DNA of 64,000 nt from an uncultured Bacteroidota bacterium (GTDB taxonomy: Bacteria > Bacteroidota > Bacteroidia > Bacteroidales > P3). Every line of letters starts with the position of its first letter. Positions within the stretch are counted from its first letter, which is position 1. Under the pieces are notes generated by a model. It ran no database searches, was not told the DNA's origin, and worked only from the letters and a program-made list of their open reading frames with translations. Position numbers and translations under genes: made by a program. This document shows, in pieces, positions 501-60,305 of the stretch. Location of the stretch: positions 1,999-65,998 of the forward strand of contig CACZRR010000025.1 in assembly GCA_902783595.1 (NCBI GenBank). Reading direction: 5' to 3'.

Positions 501-1094
501 TTATTCCATCAACCCTTGCGCCCACAGGGGGATATCATCGGTATAGCGTTTGATGATTTTGCCGTCGGCAAAGCGGAAGAGGATGCGCGCCTCCTGATTA
601 TCAACGGAATTGTCGTAGATATAGGTACGGTCAACAATGCGAGATAGTTTCACACAGTTGGCAATAGACTTATTGTAGCGCGAGATGATTTTGACAATAG
701 GCACGTCATGGCCACCCTCAATAACACGCTTCGCAATACGAGATGCATTGATGGTCGGAGAGGCGGTGCAGACGAAAAACAACCGCACAAAGAAACCTGC
801 ATCAATCGCACGCTCAATGAAATCAACCTTGTCTGGAGCGGAGAGCACACTTTCGAAAATCATGCTTTTGCGTTCGGCCAGACAGTGTTCGCGCCACTCG
901 GCACAGTATTCTGCAGCCTGTCGTACGGCTTCGGGCGAGTTCCAGTCGCCAAACCGTTCCTGAGCCACTTGGTCGGGATTGATATATACAGAATCCTCCA
1001 GCCATTCATGTTTCAGAATTTTCGAGGTAACGGTGGTCTTTCCCGAACCGTTGGGGCCAGCAATTACGATGAGAACAGGACGATGGTCGGTCAT
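501..1094 (-). CDS. Zeta-toxin-family P-loop kinase (putative toxin)
   Basis: 197 aa with N-terminal Walker A (IAGPNGSGKTT). Size and layout resemble zeta/PezT-like toxins. Its ATG overlaps the stop of the upstream small ORF by 4 nt. Confidence 0.75.
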   Translation of the reverse strand: MTDHRPVLIVIAGPNGSGKTTVTSKILKHEWLEDSVYINPDQVAQERFGDWNSPEAVRQAAEYCAEWREHCLAERKSMIFESVLSAPDKVDFIERAIDAGFFVRLFFVCTASPTINASRIAKRVIEGGHDVPIVKIISRYNKSIANCVKLSRIVDRTYIYDNSVDNQEARILFRFADGKIIKRYTDDIPLWAQGLME

Positions 1095-3758: not shown

Positions 3759-5429
<1,671 letters not shown>

Positions 5430-5450
5430 CCCCCAACGTAAACCGTTGCG

Positions 5451-5541
5451 CAAAACGCAAAACGTCAAACGTAAAACGTCAAACATCAAACGTAAAACGT
5501 AAAACGTAAAACGTCAAACATCAAACATAAAACGTCAAACC
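5451..5541 (+). repeat. Tandem array of 13 heptamers (consensus TMAAACG)
   Basis: CAAAACG CAAAACG TCAAACG TAAAACG TCAAACA TCAAACG TAAAACG x3 TCAAACA x2 TAAAACG TCAAACC. It fills most of the ettA-to-lipoprotein spacer. Confidence 0.9.
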
Positions 5542-5564
5542 TTAACCCCAAAAACCTCTTTACT

Positions 5565-6701
5565 ATGAAAAAAATCATGCACCTCCTCTGTGCTGCCATG
5601 CTGCTGGTATCCTTCGCGGCATGCACCGAGAAAGACAACGAGAACGGCGGCGACGGCAGCTACGCCTCCCTCATCATCGGCAAATGGAATGTGGACGTCA
5701 TCACCATCAACGGCAACGACATGACGCCACAGAACATGCAGCTCTCCTTCTCCCGCGACGGCAGCGGCGTCATGATCCACAACGGCGTCAGCGAGAACAA
5801 CGGCTTCTCATGGTCCTTCAGCGGCAACGTCATCAACGTCACCACCCACCGTGACGAGTTCTCCTTCACCGTCGACACCATTTCGTCCAGCTTCTGCGCC
5901 TTCCACGGCAGCTACCTCGTCCTCGATCAGGAATACCACGGCGACATACGCTTCATGCTGAGCAAGGTCAGCGGCGGCGGCAACCCCGACCCGGGCGACC
6001 TCGGCATCGGCACCCCCGAGCTCTCCTACAGCACCTCCAACTCCATCACCGTCCATGCCCACGTCACAGGCAGCGTCGGACAATACCTCGACCAGTTCCC
6101 CAACTACTCCTGCGGCATCGTCTGGTGCCCCTCCTGGGACGGCACACCACTCCTGGGACGCAACAACACCATCGTCGCCAACCCCGACTCCGACGGCAAC
6201 TTCGAGATCTCCATCGCACACCTCCAGGTCGAGTCAGAGTACAACATCGTCTCCTGGCTCAAGCTCACACCCACGAGCGACCCCATCTATAGCGACATGC
6301 GCACCTACTCCACCAGCAACGCCCCCGGACAGAACGACACCAACTGGATCAACCTCATCAGCGCCATGCCCACCGCCAGCAGCACCGCCTTCTCCGTCAT
6401 CATCAAGGCCTACTTCGACGGCGACCCCATAGGCATCGGCGTCGTCTACAACACCAGCGGCAACCCCACCCTCAGCGACAACGTCTACAACGGCTTCGAC
6501 CACATCGACATGCAGACCGGCGAGACCGACGCCACCATCCAGCGCATGCAGGAGAACATCGACGGCTCGCGCACCGTGGCAGCACTGATTGGCGGCGTGC
6601 AGCCCGGCACCACCTACCACGTCCGCGGATACATGCAGTTCTCCGACGGCTCCCCCACCATCTACACCGACGAACAGACCGTCACCACATCCGCAAAATA
6701 A
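5565..6701 (+). CDS. Lipoprotein, function unknown
   Basis: 378 aa. Lipobox signal peptide (LLVSFAAC). Ser/Thr/Asn-rich beta-type sequence. Confidence 0.8.
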   Translation: MKKIMHLLCAAMLLVSFAACTEKDNENGGDGSYASLIIGKWNVDVITINGNDMTPQNMQLSFSRDGSGVMIHNGVSENNGFSWSFSGNVINVTTHRDEFSFTVDTISSSFCAFHGSYLVLDQEYHGDIRFMLSKVSGGGNPDPGDLGIGTPELSYSTSNSITVHAHVTGSVGQYLDQFPNYSCGIVWCPSWDGTPLLGRNNTIVANPDSDGNFEISIAHLQVESEYNIVSWLKLTPTSDPIYSDMRTYSTSNAPGQNDTNWINLISAMPTASSTAFSVIIKAYFDGDPIGIGVVYNTSGNPTLSDNVYNGFDHIDMQTGETDATIQRMQENIDGSRTVAALIGGVQPGTTYHVRGYMQFSDGSPTIYTDEQTVTTSAK

Positions 6702-6736
6702 CGGAGATATTCCCTCACACAAACAGAACCATCCAA

Positions 6737-6768
6737 GGGGGCGCCACACACGTGGCGTCCCTTTCTTC
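6737..6768 (+). terminator. Rho-independent terminator
   Basis: ~10-bp GC-rich stem (GGGGCGCCAC / GTGGCGTCCC) with a 4-nt loop, followed by TTTCTTC. Confidence 0.65.
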
Positions 6769-6855
6769 GCTCAAGGATGTTAGCCATCCAGCAAACAAAA
6801 CACCTGTTGAGAAAAGTGAGATTTCCGTACGCTATCTTGTGGACATTTTGTCCAA

Positions 6856-6944
6856 TTGATGTTCGATTGATGTTCGATTGTTGTTCGATTGTTGTTCGAT
6901 TGGCAATCGAACAACAATCGAACATCAGACGAACAAGAAACGAC
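6856..6944. repeat. Palindromic array of 11-nt units (TTGWTGTTCGA x4, then inverted copies)
   Basis: Left arm has 4 tandem 11-mers; the right arm is their reverse complement. 12/12 bp pair around the centre at 6903, and the stem extends imperfectly to ~40 bp. Confidence 0.9.
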
Positions 6945-7031
6945 CATATAAGCATGTTGATATTGTCCAAAGAGCAAAAAAAATGGAGGCGGAGAGGTTA
7001 GGGAAATAAAAAAAATATGGATTTTTCTTCG

Positions 7032-7039
7032 TATCTTTG
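7032..7039 (+). promoter_or_regulatory. -7 promoter box TATCTTTG
   Basis: Matches the Bacteroidota TAnnTTTG consensus, 53 nt upstream of the ATG at 7093. No clear -33 TTTG. Confidence 0.45.
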
Positions 7040-7092
7040 CCTAACGAAGATATGTCTTTAATAACCATCAACCCTCTTAAATACAGTACACT

Positions 7093-7818
7093 ATGATGAA
7101 AAAAGTGATTACCATCATCGCCCTCGCCCTCTTCATGGGCAGCGCTACGGCACAGGACATCGACGAGAAAAACATCAAGATCGGCGACATCACCCTCGCC
7201 GGCTACGAGCTGACCCTCGACAAGGAGGCACGCCTCACGCAGGACGCCCTGCTGGCACGCCTCAAGGAGGCCGACCTCAAGGCCAAGAAGGACGGCGACA
7301 ATATCGTCGTGCGCGACCAGCTCTTCGCCGAGGTGAGTGCCGACCCCATCACGCTCTATGCCGTGGTCAAGAAGGACGGCAAGGAGCGCTGCACCGTAGC
7401 CCTCTGCGCCACGCCCACCGACCCCGCCATCGACGCCAAGAAGGTCAAGGATGGCGTCCGCCGCTTCCTGCAAAACTTCCCACCCTACGTGACGCGCTAC
7501 GAGGCGGCACGCAATGCGGAGAATGAGGAGGCCGTGCTCAAGAAAGCCCTCAAGAAGCAGGCCGCCGCCGTGGCAGCGGTAGAGAAGATAGAGAAGAGCA
7601 TCAAGAACGACCAGGACAAGATCATCGACAAGAAGAAGGACATCGAGAAGTATCAGGAGAAGATCAAGGAGTGTCAGAAGGACATCAAGGACCTCGAAGC
7701 CAATATCGCCAAGAGCCAGGACAAGAAGGCCGAGGCACAGAAAGAGGTCGAGGCCGAGAACAAGAACGTCAAAACCGTTGAAGGACAGGTCGAGTTCTTC
7801 CGCAGCATGGCCCGCTGA
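7093..7818 (+). CDS. Secreted protein with C-terminal coiled coil, function unknown
   Basis: 241 aa. Signal peptide (IALALFMGSATAQ). Lys/Glu-rich heptad-like C-terminal half. Confidence 0.75.
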   Translation: MMKKVITIIALALFMGSATAQDIDEKNIKIGDITLAGYELTLDKEARLTQDALLARLKEADLKAKKDGDNIVVRDQLFAEVSADPITLYAVVKKDGKERCTVALCATPTDPAIDAKKVKDGVRRFLQNFPPYVTRYEAARNAENEEAVLKKALKKQAAAVAAVEKIEKSIKNDQDKIIDKKKDIEKYQEKIKECQKDIKDLEANIAKSQDKKAEAQKEVEAENKNVKTVEGQVEFFRSMAR

Positions 7819-7862
7819 CAAAACCTTGCAACCAGTTTTCTCTATCTAATGGCACACGCGGT

Positions 7863-10800
7863 ATGACTGAGTTCACACATCTGCACGTACACTCGCACTA
7901 TTCGATGCTCGACGGGATGTCGAAGATCCCCGATCTGGTGAAGAAGGCCAAGAAGAACGGTATGTATGCCCTGGCCCTGACGGACCACGGCAATATGTTT
8001 GGCATCAAGGACTTCCTGGACACGGTGCAGAAGGAGAACAAGGGGCGTGGCGAGGGGGAGCCGCTGTTCAAGCCCATTGTGGGCATCGAGGCCTACTGTG
8101 CGCGGCGCACGCTCTACGACAAGGATAAGAACTTCAAGAGCATCAACCCCGAGACGGGGCGCGAGCGTGTGGTGGACCGCAGCGGCTACCACCTGATCCT
8201 GCTGGCCAAGAACCTGCAGGGCTACCACTCGCTGTGCAAGCTGACGTCGATAGCATATACCGACGGTTTCTACGACCGTCCGCGCATCGACCATGCGCTG
8301 CTGGAGAAGTACCACGAGGGGGTGATATGCAGCTCCGCCTGCCTGGGCGGCGAGGTGCCGCAGCTGATCATGGAGGGCGACCTGGAGGGTGCCGAGAAGG
8401 CAGTGGTGTGGTTCAAGGAGCTCTTCGGCGACGACTACTACATCGAGCTGATGCGTCACAAGACCGACAAGCCCAATGCCAACACCGACACCTACCGGTG
8501 GCAGATGAAGGTGGAGCCCGAGCTGGTGCGTCTGGCGCGGAAGTACGACATCAAGCTCATCGCCACCAACGACGCGCACTTTGTCGAGGAGGAGCATGGC
8601 GAGGCGCACGACCACCTGATCTGCCTGGCCACGCAGAAAGACTACGACGACCCGAACCGCATGCACTACACCAAGCAGGAGTGGCTGAAGAGCCCCGACG
8701 AGATGGCGGAGGTTTTTGCCGACCTGCCGGAGGCGTTGGCGAACACCATGGAGGTGGCGGAGAAGGTGGAGGTGTACAGCATAGACAGCGACCCGCTGAT
8801 GCCCGTCTTCCCCATCCCCGAGAGCTTCGGCAAGGAGGAGGAGTGGCGTGAGAAATTCACGGAGCAGCAGCTCTTCGACGAGTTCACGCGCAACGAGAAG
8901 GGCGAGGTGGTGATGGAGCAGGAGGCCGCTGAGAAGAAGATCAAGAAGCTGGGGGGCTACGACAAGCTGTACCGCATCAAGTTCGAGGCCGACTACCTGG
9001 AGCACCTGGTGTGGCAGGGTGCGCGGAAACGCTACCTGATGAGGGCGGAAGCTAATAACTCCGACCTTCGACCTCCGACCTCCGACCTGGAAATCAAGGA
9101 GGCCCTCAGCGAGGAGCAGCGCGAGCGCATCGTCTTCGAGCTGCACACCATCAAGACCATGGGCTTCCCCGGCTACTTCCTCATCGTGAGCGACTATATC
9201 CGTGCCGCGCGTGAGGAGCTGGGCGTCAGCGTAGGTCCCGGCCGCGGCAGTGCGGCAGGCAGCGTGGTGGCCTACTGCCTGTGGATCACGGACCTCGACC
9301 CCTTGCGCTACGACCTGCTGTTCGAGCGCTTCCTGAACCCCGACCGTATCTCGCTGCCCGATATCGACGTCGACTTCGACGATGCGGGGCGCGGCAAGGT
9401 GCTGGAGTGGGTCACCAAGAAATACGGCAAAGAGCGTGTGGCGCATATCATCACCTATGGCACCATGGCCACCAAGAGCTCCATCGCCGACGTGGGACGT
9501 GTGGAGAAAGTGCCGCTGAGCACCGTCAACCAGCTCAAGGGCTACATCCCCGAGCGCAACTTCCCCGACGGTCTGAAGGGCGACGACGGCAAGCCGCTGG
9601 CCAAGCCGCCGAAGGTGAACCTCAAGAACTGCTACAAGTACGTCCCGGAACTCAAGGCCATCATGCAGGACGGTCCCGACGACCTGCGGCGCATGCTCAC
9701 CTATGCCGAGGAACTCGAGGACACCAACCGCCAGATCGGCATCCACGCCTGCGGCGTCATCATAGGCTCGCAGGACATCACCAACATAGCGCCTGTCTGC
9801 GTCATCAACGACAAGGAGAGCGGCGAGGATGTGCTGGTGACGCAGTACGATGGTCATGTGGTGGAGAACGTAGGCCTCATCAAGATGGACTTCCTGGGGC
9901 TGAAAAACCTCACCATCATCAAGAACTGCATCCGCATGGTGAAGAAGCGCACGGGCGAGGAGATCGACATCGACCACCTGCCGCTGGACGACGAGCTGAC
10001 CTACAAGCTCTTCTGCGAGGGCAACACCGTGGGTGTGTTCCAGTTTGAAAGTGCGGGCATGCAGAAGTACCTGCGGGAGTTGCAGCCCCACGTCATCGAC
10101 GACCTCATCGCCATGAACGCCCTCTACCGCCCGGGTCCCATGGACAACATACCCGAATTCATCGACCGCAAGCAGGGCCGCAAGCCCATCAGCTACGACC
10201 TGCCGGTGATGGAGAAATACCTGAAGGAGACCTACGGCATCACCGTCTATCAGGAGCAGGTGATGTTGCTGAGCCGTCTACTGGCGGGCTTCACACGCGG
10301 CCAGAGCGACACATTGCGCAAGGCCATGGGCAAGAAGCAGATCGACAAGATGAACGAGCTGGAGGTGCTCTTCTACGAGGGCGGCGAGAAGAACGGCCAC
10401 CCGCGGGAGGTGCTGAACAAGATCTGGGAGGAGTGGAAGAAATTCGCCAGCTACGCCTTCAACAAGAGCCATGCCGCCTGCTACTCGTGGGTGGCGTACC
10501 AGACGGCCTACCTCAAGGCGCACTACCCTGCCGAGTATATGGCTGCCGTGATGACGAGTGCCCAAACCGACATCAGCCGCGTGCGCGAGCTCATGGACGA
10601 CTGCAAGAAGCACGGCATCGAGGTGGCGGCGCCGAGCGTCAACAGCAGCGAAATGGACTTCAGCGTCGATGCCGACGGCAAGATACGCTTCGGGTTGCAG
10701 GCCATCAGCGGCATGGGCGAAGCCGCCTCGGGGGTGATCATCGCCGAGCGCGAGAAGAACGGTCCCTACCAGGACATCTTCGACTTCCTGAAGCGCATCG

Positions 10801-11735
10801 ACATGCACTCCGTGAACAAGAAGAACATGGAGGTGCTGGTGAAGGCGGGCGCCTTCGACGGTGTGGGCACGATGCACCGTGCGCAGTATTTCTACAAAGA
10901 GAACCAGCTGGAGACCACGCCCACGTACCTCGACCTGCTGGTGCGCTGGGCCATACGGCGCCAGGACGGCGCGGCGAGCAACCAGATGAGCATCTTCAGC
11001 ATGAGCGCAGAGCTTGCCGAGGAGGACCATCCGCCGATACCCGTCTGCGACGAGTGGAGCACCCTCGACCGCTGCCGCGCCGAGAAGGAGGTCATCTCCA
11101 CCTATCTCTCGGGGCATCCCCTCGACGACTTCCGCTACGAGATGAAGCTCTTCACCAACACCCCCGTCAGCGCCCTCGCCAACCTCGAGGCCCTCGTCGG
11201 CAAAGAGGTCACCTTCGGCGGCATGGTGTCGGGCGTGAAAGGCGGCATCTCCTCCAGGGGCAACCCCTACGGCTCTATGGTCATCGACGACTACACCGGC
11301 AGCTACGAGTTGCGCCTCTACGACGAGGAGTACACCAACTTCAAGAACCTCTTCATCGACGGCACCTTCATCCACTGCCGTGCCACCGTGCGCAGCACCA
11401 CCTATACCGACAAGAAGACCGGCGCCGAGAAGAGCTTCACGCGTATGCGCATCCTCTCCATGACGCTGCTCTCCGGCGTGCTGGACAAGTATATCGCGCG
11501 TGTGGCTTTCACCGTGCCCCTCGAGCGTGTGGACACCGCCTTCTGCCGCCAGCTCGAGCGGCTGGCCAAGCGCCACAAAGGCAGCGTGCCGCTACAGGCC
11601 ATCGTCGTCGACGCCTCGCAGAAGCTCACCCTCACCCTCAACACCACGGCTTTGCGCGTCAACCCCCACGACATCCTCGGCGAATTGGAGCAGTTGCCCG
11701 GCGTCACCGCCGTGAAGCCCATCCCAAAAAGTTAA
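7863..11735 (+). CDS. dnaE: DNA polymerase III subunit alpha
   Basis: 1290 aa. PHP domain start (FTHLHVHSHYSMLDG), GFPGYFLIV, the PDIDVDF catalytic motif and a C-terminal OB region. Confidence 0.97.
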   Translation: MTEFTHLHVHSHYSMLDGMSKIPDLVKKAKKNGMYALALTDHGNMFGIKDFLDTVQKENKGRGEGEPLFKPIVGIEAYCARRTLYDKDKNFKSINPETGRERVVDRSGYHLILLAKNLQGYHSLCKLTSIAYTDGFYDRPRIDHALLEKYHEGVICSSACLGGEVPQLIMEGDLEGAEKAVVWFKELFGDDYYIELMRHKTDKPNANTDTYRWQMKVEPELVRLARKYDIKLIATNDAHFVEEEHGEAHDHLICLATQKDYDDPNRMHYTKQEWLKSPDEMAEVFADLPEALANTMEVAEKVEVYSIDSDPLMPVFPIPESFGKEEEWREKFTEQQLFDEFTRNEKGEVVMEQEAAEKKIKKLGGYDKLYRIKFEADYLEHLVWQGARKRYLMRAEANNSDLRPPTSDLEIKEALSEEQRERIVFELHTIKTMGFPGYFLIVSDYIRAAREELGVSVGPGRGSAAGSVVAYCLWITDLDPLRYDLLFERFLNPDRISLPDIDVDFDDAGRGKVLEWVTKKYGKERVAHIITYGTMATKSSIADVGRVEKVPLSTVNQLKGYIPERNFPDGLKGDDGKPLAKPPKVNLKNCYKYVPELKAIMQDGPDDLRRMLTYAEELEDTNRQIGIHACGVIIGSQDITNIAPVCVINDKESGEDVLVTQYDGHVVENVGLIKMDFLGLKNLTIIKNCIRMVKKRTGEEIDIDHLPLDDELTYKLFCEGNTVGVFQFESAGMQKYLRELQPHVIDDLIAMNALYRPGPMDNIPEFIDRKQGRKPISYDLPVMEKYLKETYGITVYQEQVMLLSRLLAGFTRGQSDTLRKAMGKKQIDKMNELEVLFYEGGEKNGHPREVLNKIWEEWKKFASYAFNKSHAACYSWVAYQTAYLKAHYPAEYMAAVMTSAQTDISRVRELMDDCKKHGIEVAAPSVNSSEMDFSVDADGKIRFGLQAISGMGEAASGVIIAEREKNGPYQDIFDFLKRIDMHSVNKKNMEVLVKAGAFDGVGTMHRAQYFYKENQLETTPTYLDLLVRWAIRRQDGAASNQMSIFSMSAELAEEDHPPIPVCDEWSTLDRCRAEKEVISTYLSGHPLDDFRYEMKLFTNTPVSALANLEALVGKEVTFGGMVSGVKGGISSRGNPYGSMVIDDYTGSYELRLYDEEYTNFKNLFIDGTFIHCRATVRSTTYTDKKTGAEKSFTRMRILSMTLLSGVLDKYIARVAFTVPLERVDTAFCRQLERLAKRHKGSVPLQAIVVDASQKLTLTLNTTALRVNPHDILGELEQLPGVTAVKPIPKS
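9041..9087 (+). repeat. Heptamer element inside dnaE (short GAGGGCGGAAG arm, loop, then TCCGACC-type x4)
   Basis: TCCGACC TTCGACC TCCGACC TCCGACC at 9060-9087, translated in-frame as NSDLRPPTSDL. Confidence 0.85.
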
Positions 11736-11736
11736 T

Positions 11737-11771
11737 CCACTTTCCACTTTCCGTTTTCCACTTTCCACTCC
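11737..11771 (+). repeat. Five tandem heptamers (CCACTTT family) forming the dnaE-to-GSCFA spacer
   Basis: CCACTTT CCACTTT CCGTTTT CCACTTT CCACTCC lies between the dnaE TAA (11733-11735) and the ATG at 11774. Confidence 0.9.
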
Positions 11772-11773
11772 CC

Positions 11774-12733
11774 ATGATAGCCCTCAACACTCCCGTCAGT
11801 GTCTCTCCCCTCCCCTTCACGGTGGACTTCGACAGCGGCATCGTCACCCTGGGATCGTGCTTTGCCGACGAGGTGGCACAGCGTCTGCTCGACGGTGGCT
11901 TCCGCGTCGACGCCAACCCTTTCGGCACCCTCTACAACCCTGCCTCCATCGCCGCGGCGTTGCAGCGCATCATCGACGACCGCGAGGTGGGTGCCGCCGA
12001 CCTTGTCGAGCGCGACGGCCTCTGGCATTCGTGGCACCACCACGGCGCCTTCTCGCGGCGGAGTGCTGAGGAGTGCCTCGACGCCTGCAACGGGCGTCTG
12101 CATGAGGCACACCGTCACCTGCGCCAGGCGCGGCTGCTCATGGTCACCTTCGGCACCGCCTGGATCTATGAGTTGAGGTCGGAGGTCGGAGGTCGGAAGG
12201 CGGCAGCTTCACAAGACACCTCCGACCTCCGTCTTCCGACCTCCGCCTTCCACGTTGTGGCCAACTGTCACAAAGTGCCGCCGCAGGCCTTTGTGCGGCG
12301 CATGATGGATGTCGACGAGATCGTGCAGCTGTGGCGTCCCCTGCTGCAACAGCTCTCCACTTTCAACCCTCACCTTTCCGTCATCTTCACCGTCTCCCCC
12401 ATCCGTCACCTGGCCGACGGTGCCCACGGCAACCAGCTCAGCAAGAGCACCCTGCTATTGGCTGTCGACCCACTTTCCACTCACATGGTGAGCCCGTCGA
12501 ACCACCACTCTCCACTTTCCACTTTCTACTTCCCCTCTTACGAGATTGTGCTCGACGAGCTGCGCGACTACCGCTACTACGGTCAGGATATGACGCATCC
12601 CACGGCGCTGGCTGTCGACATCGTCTACGAGCGTCTGCAGGGCGCCATCATGACCCCCGCCGTCGTGCAGCAGGCGCACCTCAACGCCAAGCGTCAGCGC
12701 CGCGACCGGCACATACCCCTGCACCAGTCATAA
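11774..12733 (+). CDS. GSCFA-family protein
   Basis: 319 aa from the ATG at 11774. Has the eponymous motif (VTLGSCFADEV) plus TFGTAW, VVANCHK, SPIRH and YFPSYEI..DELRDYR blocks. Confidence 0.85.
   Translation: MIALNTPVSVSPLPFTVDFDSGIVTLGSCFADEVAQRLLDGGFRVDANPFGTLYNPASIAAALQRIIDDREVGAADLVERDGLWHSWHHHGAFSRRSAEECLDACNGRLHEAHRHLRQARLLMVTFGTAWIYELRSEVGGRKAAASQDTSDLRLPTSAFHVVANCHKVPPQAFVRRMMDVDEIVQLWRPLLQQLSTFNPHLSVIFTVSPIRHLADGAHGNQLSKSTLLLAVDPLSTHMVSPSNHHSPLSTFYFPSYEIVLDELRDYRYYGQDMTHPTALAVDIVYERLQGAIMTPAVVQQAHLNAKRQRRDRHIPLHQS
12175..12251 (+). repeat. Inverted-repeat heptamer hairpin inside the GSCFA gene
   Basis: Left arm is GAGGTCG x3 + GAAGGCG (12175-12202). Loop is ~17-19 nt. Right arm is CTCCGAC CTCCGTC TTCCGAC CTCCGCC (12220-12247). 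Read in-frame as RSEVGGRKAAASQDTSDLRLPTSAF. Confidence 0.9.
12470..12534 (+). repeat. Second heptamer element (CCACTTT family) inside the GSCFA gene
   Basis: CCACTTT CCACTCA, a 21-nt spacer, then CCACTCT CCACTTT CCACTTT CTACTTC. Read in-frame as PLSTHMVSPSNHHSPLSTFYF. Confidence 0.8.
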
Positions 12734-12737
12734 ATCA

Positions 12738-13028
12738 TTATTTTCCCTTTCTATTGGGATTCTTGGGGAACCAGCCTTTTTCCACCCGCTCGCGCTGCTT
12801 GAACAGCTCGAGGATGGACCATAGGCTCGAGAAAGCCACGACGCCGAGGATGGTCGAGGGAATGACGGCCTCTGTGAGCAGCGACCCCGCGACGCAAACC
12901 GCAGCCACCAGCAGGAACACCCACCAGCAGCGTGTGCCGAGATAGTATTCCGCCTTGATAACGATGGGGTGGAAAAGGCCTATGCACAAGAAAGAAGAGA
13001 CACCGATGATTATGCCGACAAAGTTCAT
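12738..13028 (-). CDS. Small integral membrane protein (DUF4491-like)
   Basis: 96 aa with three hydrophobic segments and a basic C-terminus. The family assignment is from memory only. Confidence 0.55.
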   Translation of the reverse strand: MNFVGIIIGVSSFLCIGLFHPIVIKAEYYLGTRCWWVFLLVAAVCVAGSLLTEAVIPSTILGVVAFSSLWSILELFKQRERVEKGWFPKNPNRKGK

Positions 13029-13073
13029 TTTGGAAGGGTTAGTCAGAATTTAACATTTAGTATTTAGAAATCC

Positions 13074-13697
13074 TCAGATGGGTATGACCACGAACACCAG
13101 CGCATCCCAGAGGGCGTGGCTGACCACGAGTGCCGGCAGCGCCCTGGGGCAGAGCCGGTAGAGGAGACCCCATACGGCCCCTGCCGTCAGCGCCGCCATC
13201 ACCAGCATGAAGTTGCCCGACCAGATATGCACGAGGGCATAGATGGCCGTGGTGACGAGGAAGGCCGTGGTGGCGCCATGCTGTCGTGCCAGGGTGCGCT
13301 GCACATATCCGCGCCAGAAGAGCTCCTCGGCGGGGCCGATGACGAGCAGCAGCAGCGCGGCGATGGCCGCGGGCGGAAGGCCCGTCTTCATGGCATAGAC
13401 ATTGTCCACCTGAGTGCGGGCGAAGTCGAACATAGCGGCGGAGGCCTTGTCGCCCACCCAGAACACACCCCACAGCAGCAGCGCGATGACGACGCCTGCC
13501 GTCAGCTGCAGCAGCGGTTTCTCCACCTTCATCAGTTCCCTGCTGTCGGGCGTGAAGAGCAGTGCCAGGGTGGTGAGCACGACACCCGAGAGGGTCATCA
13601 CGATCCAGAAATTGGGGCGTCCCTGCGTCCATGGGGAGAACATATAGAACCAGAGCAGGGCGGCGACGGCGATGGCGACGATGAGGTGGCGTCTCAT
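13074..13697 (-). CDS. CPBP-family intramembrane glutamic endopeptidase (CAAX protease-like)
   Basis: 207 aa from the ATG at 13697. Motifs EELFWRG and HIW/HALWD in TM helices. The start overlaps the menA-like stop by 4 nt. Confidence 0.8.
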   Translation of the reverse strand: MRRHLIVAIAVAALLWFYMFSPWTQGRPNFWIVMTLSGVVLTTLALLFTPDSRELMKVEKPLLQLTAGVVIALLLWGVFWVGDKASAAMFDFARTQVDNVYAMKTGLPPAAIAALLLLVIGPAEELFWRGYVQRTLARQHGATTAFLVTTAIYALVHIWSGNFMLVMAALTAGAVWGLLYRLCPRALPALVVSHALWDALVFVVIPI

Positions 13698-18854: not shown

Positions 18855-19880
18855 ATGAAAAAGAATATAGCCCTCGTGATGGGTGGCTTCAGCGGCGAGC
18901 ACGACATCTCGATTGCCAGCGGACGTCAGGTCTATGAGCAGTTGGACCATAGTCGCTACAATGTGTACAAAATTGTGGTGGATCGTGCGGGCTGGTACTG
19001 GGAATGCGGCGACGAGCACAGACCCATCGACCGCGGCGACTTCACCGTCATCGATGCCGGCGTCACGGTTCATTTTGATTTAGCCTTTATCATCGTGCAT
19101 GGCAACCCCGGCGAAAACGGCGTGTTGCAAGGTTACTTCGATATGCTGGGCATCCGCTACACCACCTGTGGTTACTACACCTCCGCACTCACCTTCCATA
19201 AAGGCTACTGCAACCCCGTAGTAAAAAACTTTGGCATCGTCAAAGTAGCCAACTCGGTTCTGCTATATAAAGAACAGTGGGAAGTGGAAAGTGGGAAGTG
19301 GAAAGATGGAATAGTGCCAACCGACTCTCCGCAATCCTCTCTTCATCTCCCCGTTTTCGTGAAGCCGGCTGCCGGCGGCAGCAGCGTTGCCACCACCAAG
19401 GTGAAGAGCCCCGAGGCCCTGCCCGCCGCCATCCGTGAGGCTTTCACAGAAGATAGCGCAGTGCTGATAGAGGAAGCCATTGTAGGACGCGAGTTTGACT
19501 GCGGCGTATTCCGCAATGCAGACGGAGAATTGCTCCTGTTCCCTATCACCGAAATTATACCCAAAGGTGGACATGAATTCTTCGACTATGCTGCCAAGTA
19601 TGAGGGTTTCAGCAGCGAGGTGACCCCCGCCGAGGTCGACGAGCACACGGCACAACACATACAGGCGGTGTCGGCACAGCTCTACGAACGCCTGGGATGC
19701 AAAGGCATCGTACGCTTCGACTACATCCTCGACAGCGCCAACAACGAGCTCTACTTCCTGGAGGTGAATACCATCCCGGGACAGAGTGCAGAGAGCATCG
19801 TACCCAAACAAGCCCGTGCCATGGGCATCACGCCCGCCCAGCTCTACCAGATGAGCATCGAGGCGGCGATGAATAAGTGA
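18855..19880 (+). CDS. ddl: D-alanine--D-alanine ligase
   Basis: 341 aa. GGFSGEHDISIASG, HGNPGENG, FVKPAAGGSS and EVNTIPG motifs. Confidence 0.92.
   Translation: MKKNIALVMGGFSGEHDISIASGRQVYEQLDHSRYNVYKIVVDRAGWYWECGDEHRPIDRGDFTVIDAGVTVHFDLAFIIVHGNPGENGVLQGYFDMLGIRYTTCGYYTSALTFHKGYCNPVVKNFGIVKVANSVLLYKEQWEVESGKWKDGIVPTDSPQSSLHLPVFVKPAAGGSSVATTKVKSPEALPAAIREAFTEDSAVLIEEAIVGREFDCGVFRNADGELLLFPITEIIPKGGHEFFDYAAKYEGFSSEVTPAEVDEHTAQHIQAVSAQLYERLGCKGIVRFDYILDSANNELYFLEVNTIPGQSAESIVPKQARAMGITPAQLYQMSIEAAMNK
19277..19311 (+). repeat. Five tandem heptamers (AGTGGRA family) inside ddl
   Basis: AGTGGGA AGTGGAA AGTGGGA AGTGGAA AGATGGA, read in-frame as QWEVESGKWKDG. Confidence 0.85.
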
Positions 19881-19910
19881 ATAGTGAAAAATTAAAAGTG
19901 AAAAGTTAGA
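19876..19910 (+). repeat. Five tandem heptamers (AGTGAAA family) forming the ddl-to-asnS spacer
   Basis: AGTGAAT AGTGAAA AATTAAA AGTGAAA AGTTAGA, running from the ddl stop codon to 1 nt before the asnS ATG. Confidence 0.85.
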
Positions 19911-39904: not shown

Positions 39905-40391
39905 GCAGCATCTCCTCCACGGTCTTCCCCAACACTGGATGCCGAAATCCAGGCGCTATCTCCGCCAACGGCTCCAACACGAAACGGCGCAGGTGCATAC
40001 GCGGATGCGGCAGAGTGAGCTCAGGGGTATCCGTCACAACATCATCATAAAAGATCAAATCTATGTCCATCGGGCGCCCAGAGTAGATTCTTGAAGCACC
40101 ACTAGGGATACTAGAAATGCTATCGCCTTCTGGCCTCACCCTTCCCAGCTCCGCCTCGATAGCCAACGCAGCACGCAGCACCTGCCAAGGTGAAAAGGTG
40201 GTCTCCACCAACAGCGCACGGTTGAGAAAATTCTTTTGAGGTTTATCAAAGCTACCCCAGGGGGCTGTCTCGTAGAGGCCCGAAGCAAGAACAACCGTGC
40301 CAATACGTTCTTGTATCAGCACGGTTGCCTGTTCTATCAGCTGCTCTCGGTTGCCCTGATTGCCGCCGATAAGGAGGGTTACTCTATTCAT
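39894..40391 (-). CDS. folK: 2-amino-4-hydroxy-6-hydroxymethyldihydropteridine diphosphokinase
   Basis: 165 aa from the ATG at 40391. GGNQGN, YETAPWG, R.DIDLIFY and LTLPHPRMH.R.FVL.PL motifs. Confidence 0.85.
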   Translation of the reverse strand: MNRVTLLIGGNQGNREQLIEQATVLIQERIGTVVLASGLYETAPWGSFDKPQKNFLNRALLVETTFSPWQVLRAALAIEAELGRVRPEGDSISSIPSGASRIYSGRPMDIDLIFYDDVVTDTPELTLPHPRMHLRRFVLEPLAEIAPGFRHPVLGKTVEEMLHEV

Positions 40392-59006: not shown

Positions 59007-59030
59007 AATGAATGCTTTACGTTTGATGTT

Positions 59031-60305
59031 TTAAAACTCATACCCCAACCCCGCCGCAGGACTCCCCTCCTGCAGCGTGTAGTCGTCGTTGGCGGGGTCG
59101 CTGAAGAGGGGGTCTTCGTCGCGTTCACCACCCCGCACAATACTATTGAGGAAACGGTGATTCGAGGAATAGCCGTCAACAAAGGAAAGCAGCACCTCGC
59201 CACTATTGTAGCTTCCCCAGACGATGCAGTCAATGAAATCAGCACGCTCCAAATCTCCTCCCTCCACACTGTCGCTCAACGCCATGTAGTTGGTCAAAAC
59301 AACCGTCGGCAACTCCCGCGAGGTGTAGTTCCAATAGCCTGCAAAAGTGCTGTGACGGAACTCATAGTTACCTCCCAGCAGAGCAATGAACGAAGTAAGA
59401 CAGTCGTAGACCAGCAGGTTGCGGGCATTGAGGGTGGCCTGCTGACCCACAAGACCACAGTCGCTCATATTGCGCACTATGCTGTTGGTCAGCGTGAGTT
59501 GCGCTCCCGGGTAGAGACGGAGTCCACCAATGCCGTTCTCAACAACGGCATGGTCAATTACATTGCCTATGCTGTTGTCCCTAAACCAGATGAGCCCCCA
59601 TTGCCCAGGCAAAAAACGGTACCAGCCGTCGTGACGCAACGAGGTGAAGACAATAGGTTCCTCTTCGCTGCCGCGCGCCTGCAGGCGCGCCGTCGATTCC
59701 AACACCAGACAGGCGTCGTTGGCGAAATGCACCTCGGCGCCAGGGCTGATAGTGAGCGTCTGCAGCGAGTCCACCCACATGTTGCCCACCACGATATGCG
59801 GCAACGTAGCATCCCACGTCTGACTGCTCAGGTGAAGCACACCGCCGTCAGGAGCTATATGGTAGCGCGCATTGCGTCCATAGGCCGTCAAGGGTAGCCG
59901 CTGACCATTGGAAAAGAGGATGGCATCACTCACCAAAAAAGGCGTCGTCGAATCGTTGGGATTGATATTTACCTGCACGAAAATGAAAAGGCTATCGTGG
60001 GCCAGCAACTCCACATCGCGGACCACAAGCGATGTGTCACCATCGACATTGAGACGAAAACGGCTGGCACGTCCGCCCTCAAGGGTCACACTGCTCAACA
60101 TCACATTGTCACTGCTGCCATTAGTAACGGTGAGACGCAGCGTGGTGCTGCCCATGGTAGTGAAAACGGTGTCGAACGTCAGCGTGTCGCACGAGAATGT
60201 CAGTCGTACACTCCCATCATCCTCCACAAACGATTCCTTCTCGCACGACAACGAAAACCATGGCATCACAGCTAAAACCACCACGTATAGAATCCTCTTC
60301 ATCAT
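59031..60305 (-). CDS. Lipoprotein, function unknown (possible beta-helix fold)
   Basis: 424 aa. Lipobox (WFSLSC). Confidence 0.7.
   Translation of the reverse strand: MMKRILYVVVLAVMPWFSLSCEKESFVEDDGSVRLTFSCDTLTFDTVFTTMGSTTLRLTVTNGSSDNVMLSSVTLEGGRASRFRLNVDGDTSLVVRDVELLAHDSLFIFVQVNINPNDSTTPFLVSDAILFSNGQRLPLTAYGRNARYHIAPDGGVLHLSSQTWDATLPHIVVGNMWVDSLQTLTISPGAEVHFANDACLVLESTARLQARGSEEEPIVFTSLRHDGWYRFLPGQWGLIWFRDNSIGNVIDHAVVENGIGGLRLYPGAQLTLTNSIVRNMSDCGLVGQQATLNARNLLVYDCLTSFIALLGGNYEFRHSTFAGYWNYTSRELPTVVLTNYMALSDSVEGGDLERADFIDCIVWGSYNSGEVLLSFVDGYSSNHRFLNSIVRGGERDEDPLFSDPANDDYTLQEGSPAAGLGYEF

Follow-up and report, generated by a model that had tools for sequence, protein, structure and literature searches.

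In a 64,000-nucleotide stretch of contig CACZRR010000025.1 from an uncultured Bacteroidales bacterium (the window), the gene for the DNA polymerase III alpha subunit, dnaE, carries an in-frame insertion that contains an array of tandem heptamers. Relative to orthologues, the segment at 9036-9095 is an insertion of +20 aa. We consider it probable that 9041-9087 is the remnant of a hairpin of ~68 nt with the form (GAGGTCG-like)4 - 12-nt loop - (TCCGACC-like)4, a self-propagating repeat filtered by selection for reading frame. The features of the dnaE copy are as follows.

7863..11735, + strand: dnaE (DNA polymerase III alpha subunit), 1290 aa, host gene; from the open reading frame (ORF)
9036..9095, + strand: 60-nt (20-codon) insertion relative to the ancestral RY-GEELSDE turn, peptide LMRAEANNSDLRPPTSDLEI; from orthologue comparison
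9041..9047, + strand: sole surviving left-arm heptamer, GAGGGCG; from an alignment of the window, L208, L001, L002 and L207
9048..9059, + strand: loop of the former hairpin, GAAGCTAATAAC; from the fold of the full L207 allele
9060..9087, + strand: right arm TCCGACC TTCGACC TCCGACC TCCGACC, peptide SDLRPPTSDL; from the sequence and Tandem Repeats Finder

A database protein identical to the window DnaE has the Pfam domains PHP, DNA_pol3_alpha, finger and HHH_6, and the window protein matches PDB 2HNH and 2HPI by sequence. A preliminary description, made from the DNA sequence, had noted four tandem heptamers in frame in the variable linker of this gene, and both the sequence and Tandem Repeats Finder agree with it (9059-9088, period 7, 4.3 copies, 91% matches). 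The array reads in frame as ...LMRAEANNSDLRPPTSDLEIKEALSEE..., 25 residues ahead of the palm segment GFPGYFLIV, and is a heptanucleotide simple sequence repeat (SSR) in the usual sense of a 5-11-nt unit repeated head to tail above chance: the window has 8 matches to (TCCGACC)2 at up to 2 mismatches where 0.44 would be expected, a count that none of 100 shuffles reaches, and all eight are confined to dnaE and 12177-12248. The same unit is thus found at more than one locus (TCCGACC/GGTCGGA at dnaE and in a GSCFA-family gene), as is a second unit, TCCACTT/AAGTGGA, at 11736, 12505 and 19276. Upstream of the four dnaE heptamers lies a left-arm remnant, GAGGGCGGAAG, at 9041-9051. The window segment folds no better than its shuffles (DNA -7.6 kcal/mol, z -1.8; RNA z -0.9); this allele consists of a repeat array and a remnant instead of a hairpin.

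The insertion was delimited by comparison with 120 DnaE proteins of 74-100% identity and with 80 orthologous loci from species-representative genomes. These loci are all from uncultured rumen or gut Bacteroidales, Paludibacteraceae and similar metagenome-assembled genomes (MAGs); the window itself contains the type IX secretion gene sprA. All relatives of <=60% identity (60-odd) have a short turn, GA.KRY-G[ED].L[ST].E..RI.FELH, and measure 37 aa from anchor to anchor, against 57 aa in the window. In an alignment of 60 DnaE proteins, mostly diverse bacterial cluster representatives, 53 have 5-7 residues between RY and the next conserved Glu, the window has 26, and most of the distant homologues align to query residues 1-330 and 415-640 only. 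The segment is therefore a 20-aa insertion, which bears out the earlier view that it derives from a repeat and is not ancestral coding sequence: distant orthologues have no peptide there at all, on repetitive DNA or otherwise. Mid-distance orthologues do encode a related peptide, LSDRSDLSDQSDLSDIK, but on a 9-nt tandem repeat, and the heptamer element is nested in an older, clade-specific and itself repetitive insertion.

The complete form of the element is found in a conspecific strain. Protein P0123, a 1293-aa member of the 90%-identity cluster of the window DnaE, is encoded on contig L207, where dnaE is ~99% identical to that of the window outside two variable patches and the GSCFA hairpin described below is nearly identical. 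The L207 site reads CTGAT GAGGTCG GAGGGCG GAGAGCG GAGGGCG GAAGCTAATAAC TCCGCCC TCAAACC TCCGACC TCCGACC TGGAAATC. This is a complete 4+4 heptamer hairpin, with a 9-bp perfect match between the left and right arms beside the loop, and the full allele folds at -29 kcal/mol as DNA (z -7.9) and at -49 kcal/mol as RNA (z -7.4). The preliminary description had likened GAGGGCGGAAG to the loop-proximal end of the left arm at 12175-12202, and L207 carries the complete left arm at exactly that place.

Exactly 21 nt of the L207 site, equal to three left-arm units or 7 codons, are missing from the window, L001, L002 and the P0125 allele. The deletion lies directly 5' of GAGGGCG, between 9040 and 9041, its exact placement being ambiguous within the repeat. 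The loss removes the -29 (DNA) / -49 (RNA) kcal/mol structure from the window allele. The window allele is identical to that of L208/P0122 and present on 4 contigs; at least 7 contigs carry deleted alleles and 1 carries the full one. Differences in the right arm are clustered by unit (TTCGACC as unit 2 in the window, TCTGCCC in L002, and TCCGCCC TCAAACC as units 1-2 in L207), with three or four bases changed inside one or two units in L002 and L207, and in L207 the loop-proximal right unit exactly complements the loop-proximal left unit. The divergence among the left-arm units of L207 makes it probable that the full form came first and that the window allele arose from it by deletion.

Whole-unit length polymorphism at this site between strains thus amounts to 3 units (21 nt, window vs L207). 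One unit of 7 nt would shift the frame, as had been pointed out, and the sole length variant among the contigs is in keeping with that argument, being three units and in frame. The dnaE alleles are in frame on all of the at least 8 conspecific contigs, with DnaE lengths of 1290, 1293 or 1285 aa. These data bear on the reading that the array is an assembly or sequencing artefact, or else a phase-variable contingency repeat. Short repeats do misassemble, and a 7-nt unit within an ORF is the classical contingency layout. However, independent assemblies yielded the in-frame array on at least 8 contigs, which differ in allele, dnaE is essential, and no out-of-frame dnaE allele was seen among these contigs, so that we regard this reading as having a negligible chance of being correct. 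A likeness of GATCGGAAG-like variants to the Illumina adapter was discounted: the stretches inspected show no more of the adapter, and the arrays keep the frame and exist as alleles in different assemblies.

The second variable patch of dnaE between conspecific strains is at 9560-9630 (aa ~563-582), with PERNFPDGLKGDDGKPLAKPPK in the window and PDRGFPDNIKDDKGKSPK in L207, a 12-nt indel included; it may reflect a short recombined tract. Contig L001, compared over 5000-13500, matches the window at 99-100% identity up to ~10200, inside dnaE, and at 55-80% beyond, where it has a different GSCFA gene without the hairpin. It represents either between-species recombination inside dnaE or a chimeric metagenome scaffold, and as a recombinant or chimeric contig its protein (P0002, 88% identical) was not counted as an independent orthologue with the same insert.

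We propose the following route to such elements. Replication slippage in 7-nt steps would generate and alter the arrays, and fold-back or template-switch copying of a G-rich array would create a C-rich 3' arm and correct one arm against the other; such copying would explain the equal arm lengths, the arm-to-arm correction and the 5' position of the G-rich arm. Selection would discard variants with a stop codon or with a net length that is not a multiple of 3, and an essential gene would therefore retain only 3-unit steps. By losing the left arm, the commoner alleles probably rid the dnaE template and its mRNA of a strong secondary structure. The unit TCCGACC/GGTCGGA is stop-free in all six frames, giving GRRSEVG on one strand and SDLRPPT on the other, and could for this reason be read as a hydrophilic loop; the related unit TCTGACC, read from its sequence, contains a stop. 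The element would then be a functionless DNA-level passenger whose peptide the polymerase tolerates.

The GSCFA-family gene downstream of dnaE holds a second copy, with the following features.

11774-12733, + strand: GSCFA-family gene, host of the second copy; Pfam PF08885, E 5e-83
12173..12253, + strand: 81-nt in-frame insertion; from the inverted repeat and orthologue comparison
12175-12202, + strand: left arm, GAGGTCG x3 then GAAGGCG; from the inverted repeat
12203-12220, + strand: loop, 18 nt
12221-12248, + strand: right arm TCCGACC TCCGTCT TCCGACC TCCGCCT; from the inverted repeat

The preliminary description had noted the unit in the same frame in this gene, and what lies there is a full copy, 3.1 kb from the dnaE copy and absent from 10 orthologues. 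The hairpin is translated in frame as LRSEVGGRKAAASQDTSDLRLPTSAFH and folds at -24.6 kcal/mol as DNA (z -4.3; RNA z -5.4), and its arm-loop junction, GGCGG[AC]AGCT, is common to both copies. The window, L002, L207 and L208 have 27 residues at a point where the 10 GSCFA orthologues without the hairpin make a turn of 3-4 residues, E[KRH]-[DES]G.-VANCHK; the net gain is 24 aa. Against these empty sites no target-site duplication is seen; the element replaces 9-12 nt. Conspecific GSCFA proteins comprise 14 distinct variants, all 319 aa and without length change, and 6 of the 18 variable positions fall in the 27-aa insert (0.22 per site vs 0.041 outside, 5.4-fold). L018 has (CAACTCT) x11.6 at the same GSCFA site.

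The second copy bears on whether any element needs to be invoked at dnaE. Local slippage could have expanded Ser-Asp-Leu codons (TCC GAC CTG) in a Ser/Asp-rich linker, the likeness to GSCFA being coincidental. Mid-distance orthologues (L085, L013, L008) indeed encode L-SDR-SDL-SDQ-SDL-SD-IK with TCC/TCG GAC codons, the window SDLEIKEALSEE aligns with their SDLSDIKAALSEE, and three heptamers make exactly 7 codons. Yet the four-unit complementary left arm of L207, with its 9-bp perfect match, goes beyond simple slippage of a right arm, and the arm-loop junction is common to the GSCFA copy. Moreover, in 1.46 Mb of related Bacteroidales loci the unit is found only at dnaE (window, L001, L002, L083) and GSCFA (window, L002). 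Slippage as the whole explanation is thereby largely refuted, and we judge it very unlikely.

Within the clade, the dnaE turn itself is a hot spot of insertion. Among the 120 proteins (clade of >=62% identity), the site has 65 different sequences, and 47 of the 120 close orthologues keep a plain two-residue GE or GD turn with no insert. Class B inserts have the form L.DR.DLSD.SDLSDIKAALSE, encoded by a 9-nt tandem repeat (NNGTCGGAC x5 in L085), and their peptide LSDRSDLSDQSDLSDIK is kept with synonymous changes across species of 64-85% identity. Class C inserts (LSGEWRAESGE.SDADIK) are encoded by (AGYGGAG) x4, another heptamer array (L206), and class D inserts have the form S/G...Y[KR]GEDLSE; in L084, which is of class D, the DNA forms a hairpin of 8-10-nt units, (GGAGTGCAG)n...(GCACTCCT)n, z -6.3. 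The site in the 78%-identical orthologue L083 reads TTCGGAGGTCGGAGGTCGGAAGCC-loop-TCTCCGACCTCC, i.e. (GGAGGTC)2.5...TCCGACC (z -3.3), and shares the unit and the CGGAAGC junction with the window dnaE copy. Insert-bearing forms also share flanking residues, namely the R in GARKRY and EVRER, and for this reason the pattern suggests few founding events followed by turnover in place and recombination. A neighbor-joining tree of DnaE, in which the insert classes are interleaved with insert-free forms, was not relied on because recombination within dnaE is likely.

A second insertion-prone site is in the PHP domain of DnaE, at aa ~59-68 (P0001-P0120). Relatives carry either coiled-coil-like inserts (GKVKDRIKELEA...) or in-frame heptamer arrays there, the latter as LNSQLSTLNSQL in L049 (8277-8311) and DSNSQLSILNSQFF in L015 (8344-8382); L029 (8531-8564) is also listed.

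The structural setting of the insert was predicted with AlphaFold for DnaE residues 1-640 from 60 sequences, mostly diverse cluster representatives, which replaced an unusable earlier model built from 25 close homologues (predicted local distance difference test, pLDDT, 56.5). The model has a mean pLDDT of 93.7 and a predicted template modelling (TM) score of 0.90, and its TM scores against Pol III alpha structures are 0.75 (2HPI), 0.76 (5LEW) and 0.66 (2HNH). The heptamer-coded residues 397-407 (ANNSDLRPPTS) form a coil between predicted helices (365-396, then 408-414 and 417-433), as would be expected of the surface loop that had been envisaged, with the local pLDDT falling to 76-84 from 93-96 on either side. 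Inserts in this position are rich in D+S+E+G (46%) and hydrophilic (mean hydropathy -0.94 vs -0.44 for the whole protein). The model supports a tolerated, probably exposed loop between the PHP-proximal helices and the conserved palm segment.

The insert might instead be kept for a function, either as a flexible acidic linker that tunes a contact of DnaE or as a hairpin that regulates dnaE expression or fork passage. It is in frame and present in all conspecific contigs seen, the class B peptide is conserved as described above, and the full hairpin is very stable as RNA. Against this stand its absence from 47 of 120 close and all distant orthologues, the 65 variants without a common sequence, the destruction of the hairpin in the commoner alleles, and the presence of similar repeats in loops of GSCFA, D-Ala-D-Ala ligase (Ddl) and many other genes. 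Retention for function therefore seems to us highly improbable.

Hairpins of the same kind occur on metagenome contigs. In a scan for (TCCGACC)3, the first 80 loci examined, among the matches listed, come from many samples and have a G+C of 0.42-0.72. Many listed matches are (GGTCRGA)n-loop-(TCYGACC)n hairpins, several of them in frame in real genes. One is in a class I tRNA-ligase anticodon-binding domain by Pfam; other hosts, assigned by eye from motifs, are UvrA-like, ATP-dependent DNA-ligase-like, MnmE-like and glycosyltransferase ORFs and another DnaE ORF. Searching with the translated repeat returned mostly short hypothetical proteins, with two matches named Dehalococcoidia and Spartobacteria, and the translated repeat itself matches no Pfam family. 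After de-duplication, all 33 metagenome hairpins of the GGTCGGA type have the G-rich arm 5', as do 32 of the 40 built from other units (p = 2e-4). Since a hairpin reads the same on both strands, the polarity belongs to the structure and does not depend on which strand is read.

On the (TCCGACC)3 contigs (L086-L205, e.g. L111, L107, L138, L155, L163), heptamer-arm hairpins of many other units (AGTGATG, GAGTTGC, AGGCCAG, GAAGGCG and others) are crowded, in places at one per 1-2 kb, with the G-rich arm almost always 5'. Some of the hairpin copies on these contigs, <1.2 kb apart, share loops and flanks. L114 (G+C 0.46) has a DnaE-like ORF with several in-frame heptamer arrays elsewhere, GGRRSEVGGRRSEVGGRR...INNRKSEIVNSIVNRKSEIVNRK, after a KSHSASYA motif.

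More tentatively, and with somewhat less than even confidence, we suggest that hairpins with arms of tandem 7- to 11-mers and a 5' G-rich arm may be an undescribed, self-generating class found across several phyla. They would be made by fold-back copying of slippage-prone arrays and not by a transposase, and would spread locally, and their stop-free variants, such as (GGTCGGA)n...(TCCGACC)n, would settle in loops of essential proteins (DnaE, Ddl, an aminoacyl-tRNA synthetase, and UvrA-, MnmE- and DNA-ligase-like proteins). The main rival is a miniature mobile element similar to those reviewed below, in which a transposase or recombinase recognising the heptamer arms would have pasted in the dnaE and GSCFA copies. 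Two copies of one family 3.1 kb apart share an arm-loop junction, the arm order is strict, as for recognised ends, and in-frame palindromic elements have a precedent in Rickettsia (PMC10969869).

Several further points weigh against a self-propagating repeat, and the first two favour the mobile element directly. Hairpin copies in L111, L146 and L148 share ~60-nt loops and flanks, which looks like copy-and-paste of a defined element, and the spread of the heptamer over contigs of wide G+C range and names from at least 2 other phyla could point to a unit-recognising protein. Within the Bacteroidales loci themselves, the order of the arms shows no significant polarity (12 vs 5). The mechanism is read from patterns, with no intermediate and no out-of-frame minor allele seen among the contigs; the single line of evidence for which allele is ancestral is the divergence of the left-arm units; and surface exposure is read from predicted secondary structure and pLDDT.

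On the other side, the GSCFA site has no target-site duplication and shows replacement of nucleotides instead, and a Pfam scan covering most window ORFs of >=80 aa (64 kb) found no transposase, REP-associated tyrosine transposase (RAYT), integrase or reverse transcriptase. Many different units share one architecture (7-mer or 11-mer, ~4 per arm) on the same contigs, unlike what one sequence-specific enzyme would be expected to leave, and between the dnaE, GSCFA and L083 copies the loops vary in length and have mostly different sequences. On balance we think a mobile element rather unlikely, and continue to prefer a self-propagating repeat filtered by frame.

The closest precedent for the in-frame setting, and the one that had been proposed, is the Rickettsia palindromic elements (RPEs). 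These are palindromic DNA in frame in unrelated housekeeping genes, adding a peptide at fold-compatible positions; they are ~100-150 bp long, form about ten families each with a conserved peptide, and are confined to Rickettsia (PMC10969869). Our elements resemble them in in-frame insertion at fold-tolerated positions (dnaE, +20 aa in a helix-coil-helix turn; GSCFA, +24 aa net), and the L207 and GSCFA copies (z -7.9 and -4.3) fold as hairpins, whereas the window dnaE copy (z -1.8) does not. They are set apart by description, at 47 nt (window), 68 nt (L207) and 74 nt (GSCFA), with tandem-heptamer arms and whole-unit differences, and the host, by its closest MAGs, is a rumen or gut member of the Bacteroidales, not Rickettsia or Rickettsiales. 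The precedent thus holds as an analogy for in-frame palindromes, but by its size and arms the element falls outside the RPE families.

Tandem heptamers as such are well documented; no class of long SSR is reported to be commoner in prokaryotes (Mrazek 2007, cited by PMC4679880 and PMC4692102), and the cyanobacterial short tandemly repeated repetitive sequences belong among long SSRs with 5-11-nt units. Examples are TAACTGA in Beggiatoaceae/Bacteroidetes (PMC4679880) and GGGAATC and GGGGAYT in Xanthomonas/Nostoc, with occasional inverted pairs in Xanthomonas (PMC4692102). Our arrays are like these in having tandem units at many loci, a preference for about four units, strain variation and many arrays abutting start codons. 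However, heptamer SSRs are said to lie mostly between genes and to be under-represented within coding DNA (PMC4679880, PMC4692102), and the arrays and array-hairpins here are in frame in essential genes (dnaE, ddl). Tandem heptamers by themselves were already known in bacteria, Bacteroidetes among them (PMC4679880, PMC4692102). In the literature searched, whose coverage was incomplete, we found no prior description of in-frame heptamer-repeat hairpins in essential genes, of these units or of the G-rich-5' polarity.

Other hairpin families differ more. REPINs are doublets of REPs (repetitive extragenic palindromic sequences) which form hairpins, are extragenic and occur with RAYT transposases (PMC3116915), and REP arm ends carry a conserved GTAG or CGTC tag (PMC3733652). 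Like our elements they are inverted doublets with a spacer that form a hairpin; REPINs are dispersed, ~70-110 nt long, often clustered and faster-evolving than their flanks. In contrast, both copies here are inside ORFs and have repetitive arms that start with GAGGTCG and end with CGACCTC, without the GTAG/CGTC tag, and no RAYT was found by Pfam in the 64-kb window within the ORFs scanned. [quoted passage not shown] MITEs are flanked by target-site duplications and end in inverted repeats that match an insertion sequence, whereas the GSCFA site is without a duplication and the arms are internally periodic. Finally, the dnaE array is like a contingency locus in being a non-triplet SSR within an ORF, where a one-unit change shifts the frame, but it lies in an essential gene, every allele seen keeps the frame, and lengths differ by 3 units only.

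Suppression of SSRs is the norm in the middle of proteins (PMC3315296). Here a non-triplet repeat persists, polymorphic between strains, in the middle of an essential gene, where purging would be expected and frame selection passes only 21-nt steps. The turn, which measures 5-7 aa in most bacteria and reaches 57 aa in this clade, is a natural insertion-tolerant site of Pol III alpha that could serve for engineering and to mark strains. The finding suggests a path from DNA-level repeat dynamics to new protein loops. Should polar heptamer hairpins turn out to form a general class, generated by a mechanism of their own, a new kind of repeat would join REP/REPIN, MITE and RPE; if that self-generating class is real, a 5-residue polymerase turn became hypervariable in one rumen Bacteroidales clade. 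In practical terms, heptamer arrays yield spurious small ORFs and can mislead gene callers and assemblers.

Three further heptamer arrays in the window, all found with Tandem Repeats Finder, belong to or near these genes.

11736..11769, + strand: (TCCACTT) x4.9, second heptamer family, fills the dnaE-GSCFA spacer to 5 nt before the GSCFA start codon
12505..12531, + strand: (CCACTTT) x3.9, in frame in a second variable GSCFA loop, HHSPLSTFYF
19276..19316, + strand: (AGTGGRA) x5.6, read in frame as QWEVESGKWKDGIV within D-Ala-D-Ala ligase (ORF 18855-19880)

The ligase array belongs to the unit family of 11736-11769 on the other strand. Full-length Ddl variants are all 341 aa, without length change, and L015 carries a different heptamer array at the site of the window's Ddl array. 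At 19870-19906, (TGAAAAG) x5 fills the gap from the Ddl stop codon to the next start codon. The HPPK gene (40166-40181) was suspected of carrying a heptamer insert too, which was not confirmed.

Across the 1.46 Mb of related loci, which are 88% coding, the periods of arrays with >=3 copies peak at 7, 11 and 8, distributed as follows.

Period 7: 39 arrays coding, 75 intergenic
Period 11: 3 arrays coding, 45 intergenic
Period 8: 11 arrays coding, 29 intergenic

Among the 75 intergenic heptamer arrays, 20 are <=15 nt from a start codon and 20 from a stop, by crude gene calls. Many 11-mer arrays form hairpins with ~4 units per arm, their unit sequences differing. The window has one of these in the intergenic region at 6855-6947, where tandem 11-mers ATTGATGTTCG x4.4 face the inverse x3.6 (DNA -33 kcal/mol, z -9.7), and 11-mer hairpins of the same architecture with unrelated units are found in L005, in L009 and three times in L020. 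At 5452-5540, (AAAACGT/AAACGTC) x12.7 ends ~25 nt upstream of ORF 5565-6701 (no Pfam family), and a short stretch related to this array is at 59012-59033. Rfam at gathering thresholds finds only a tRNA in the window and no family for the repeat. Near the start of the window, a Zeta-toxin-family gene lies at 501-1094 (-), which in L208 (566-1167) is adjoined by a ParE-toxin gene and its small upstream partner; these putative toxin-antitoxin modules flank the housekeeping block.

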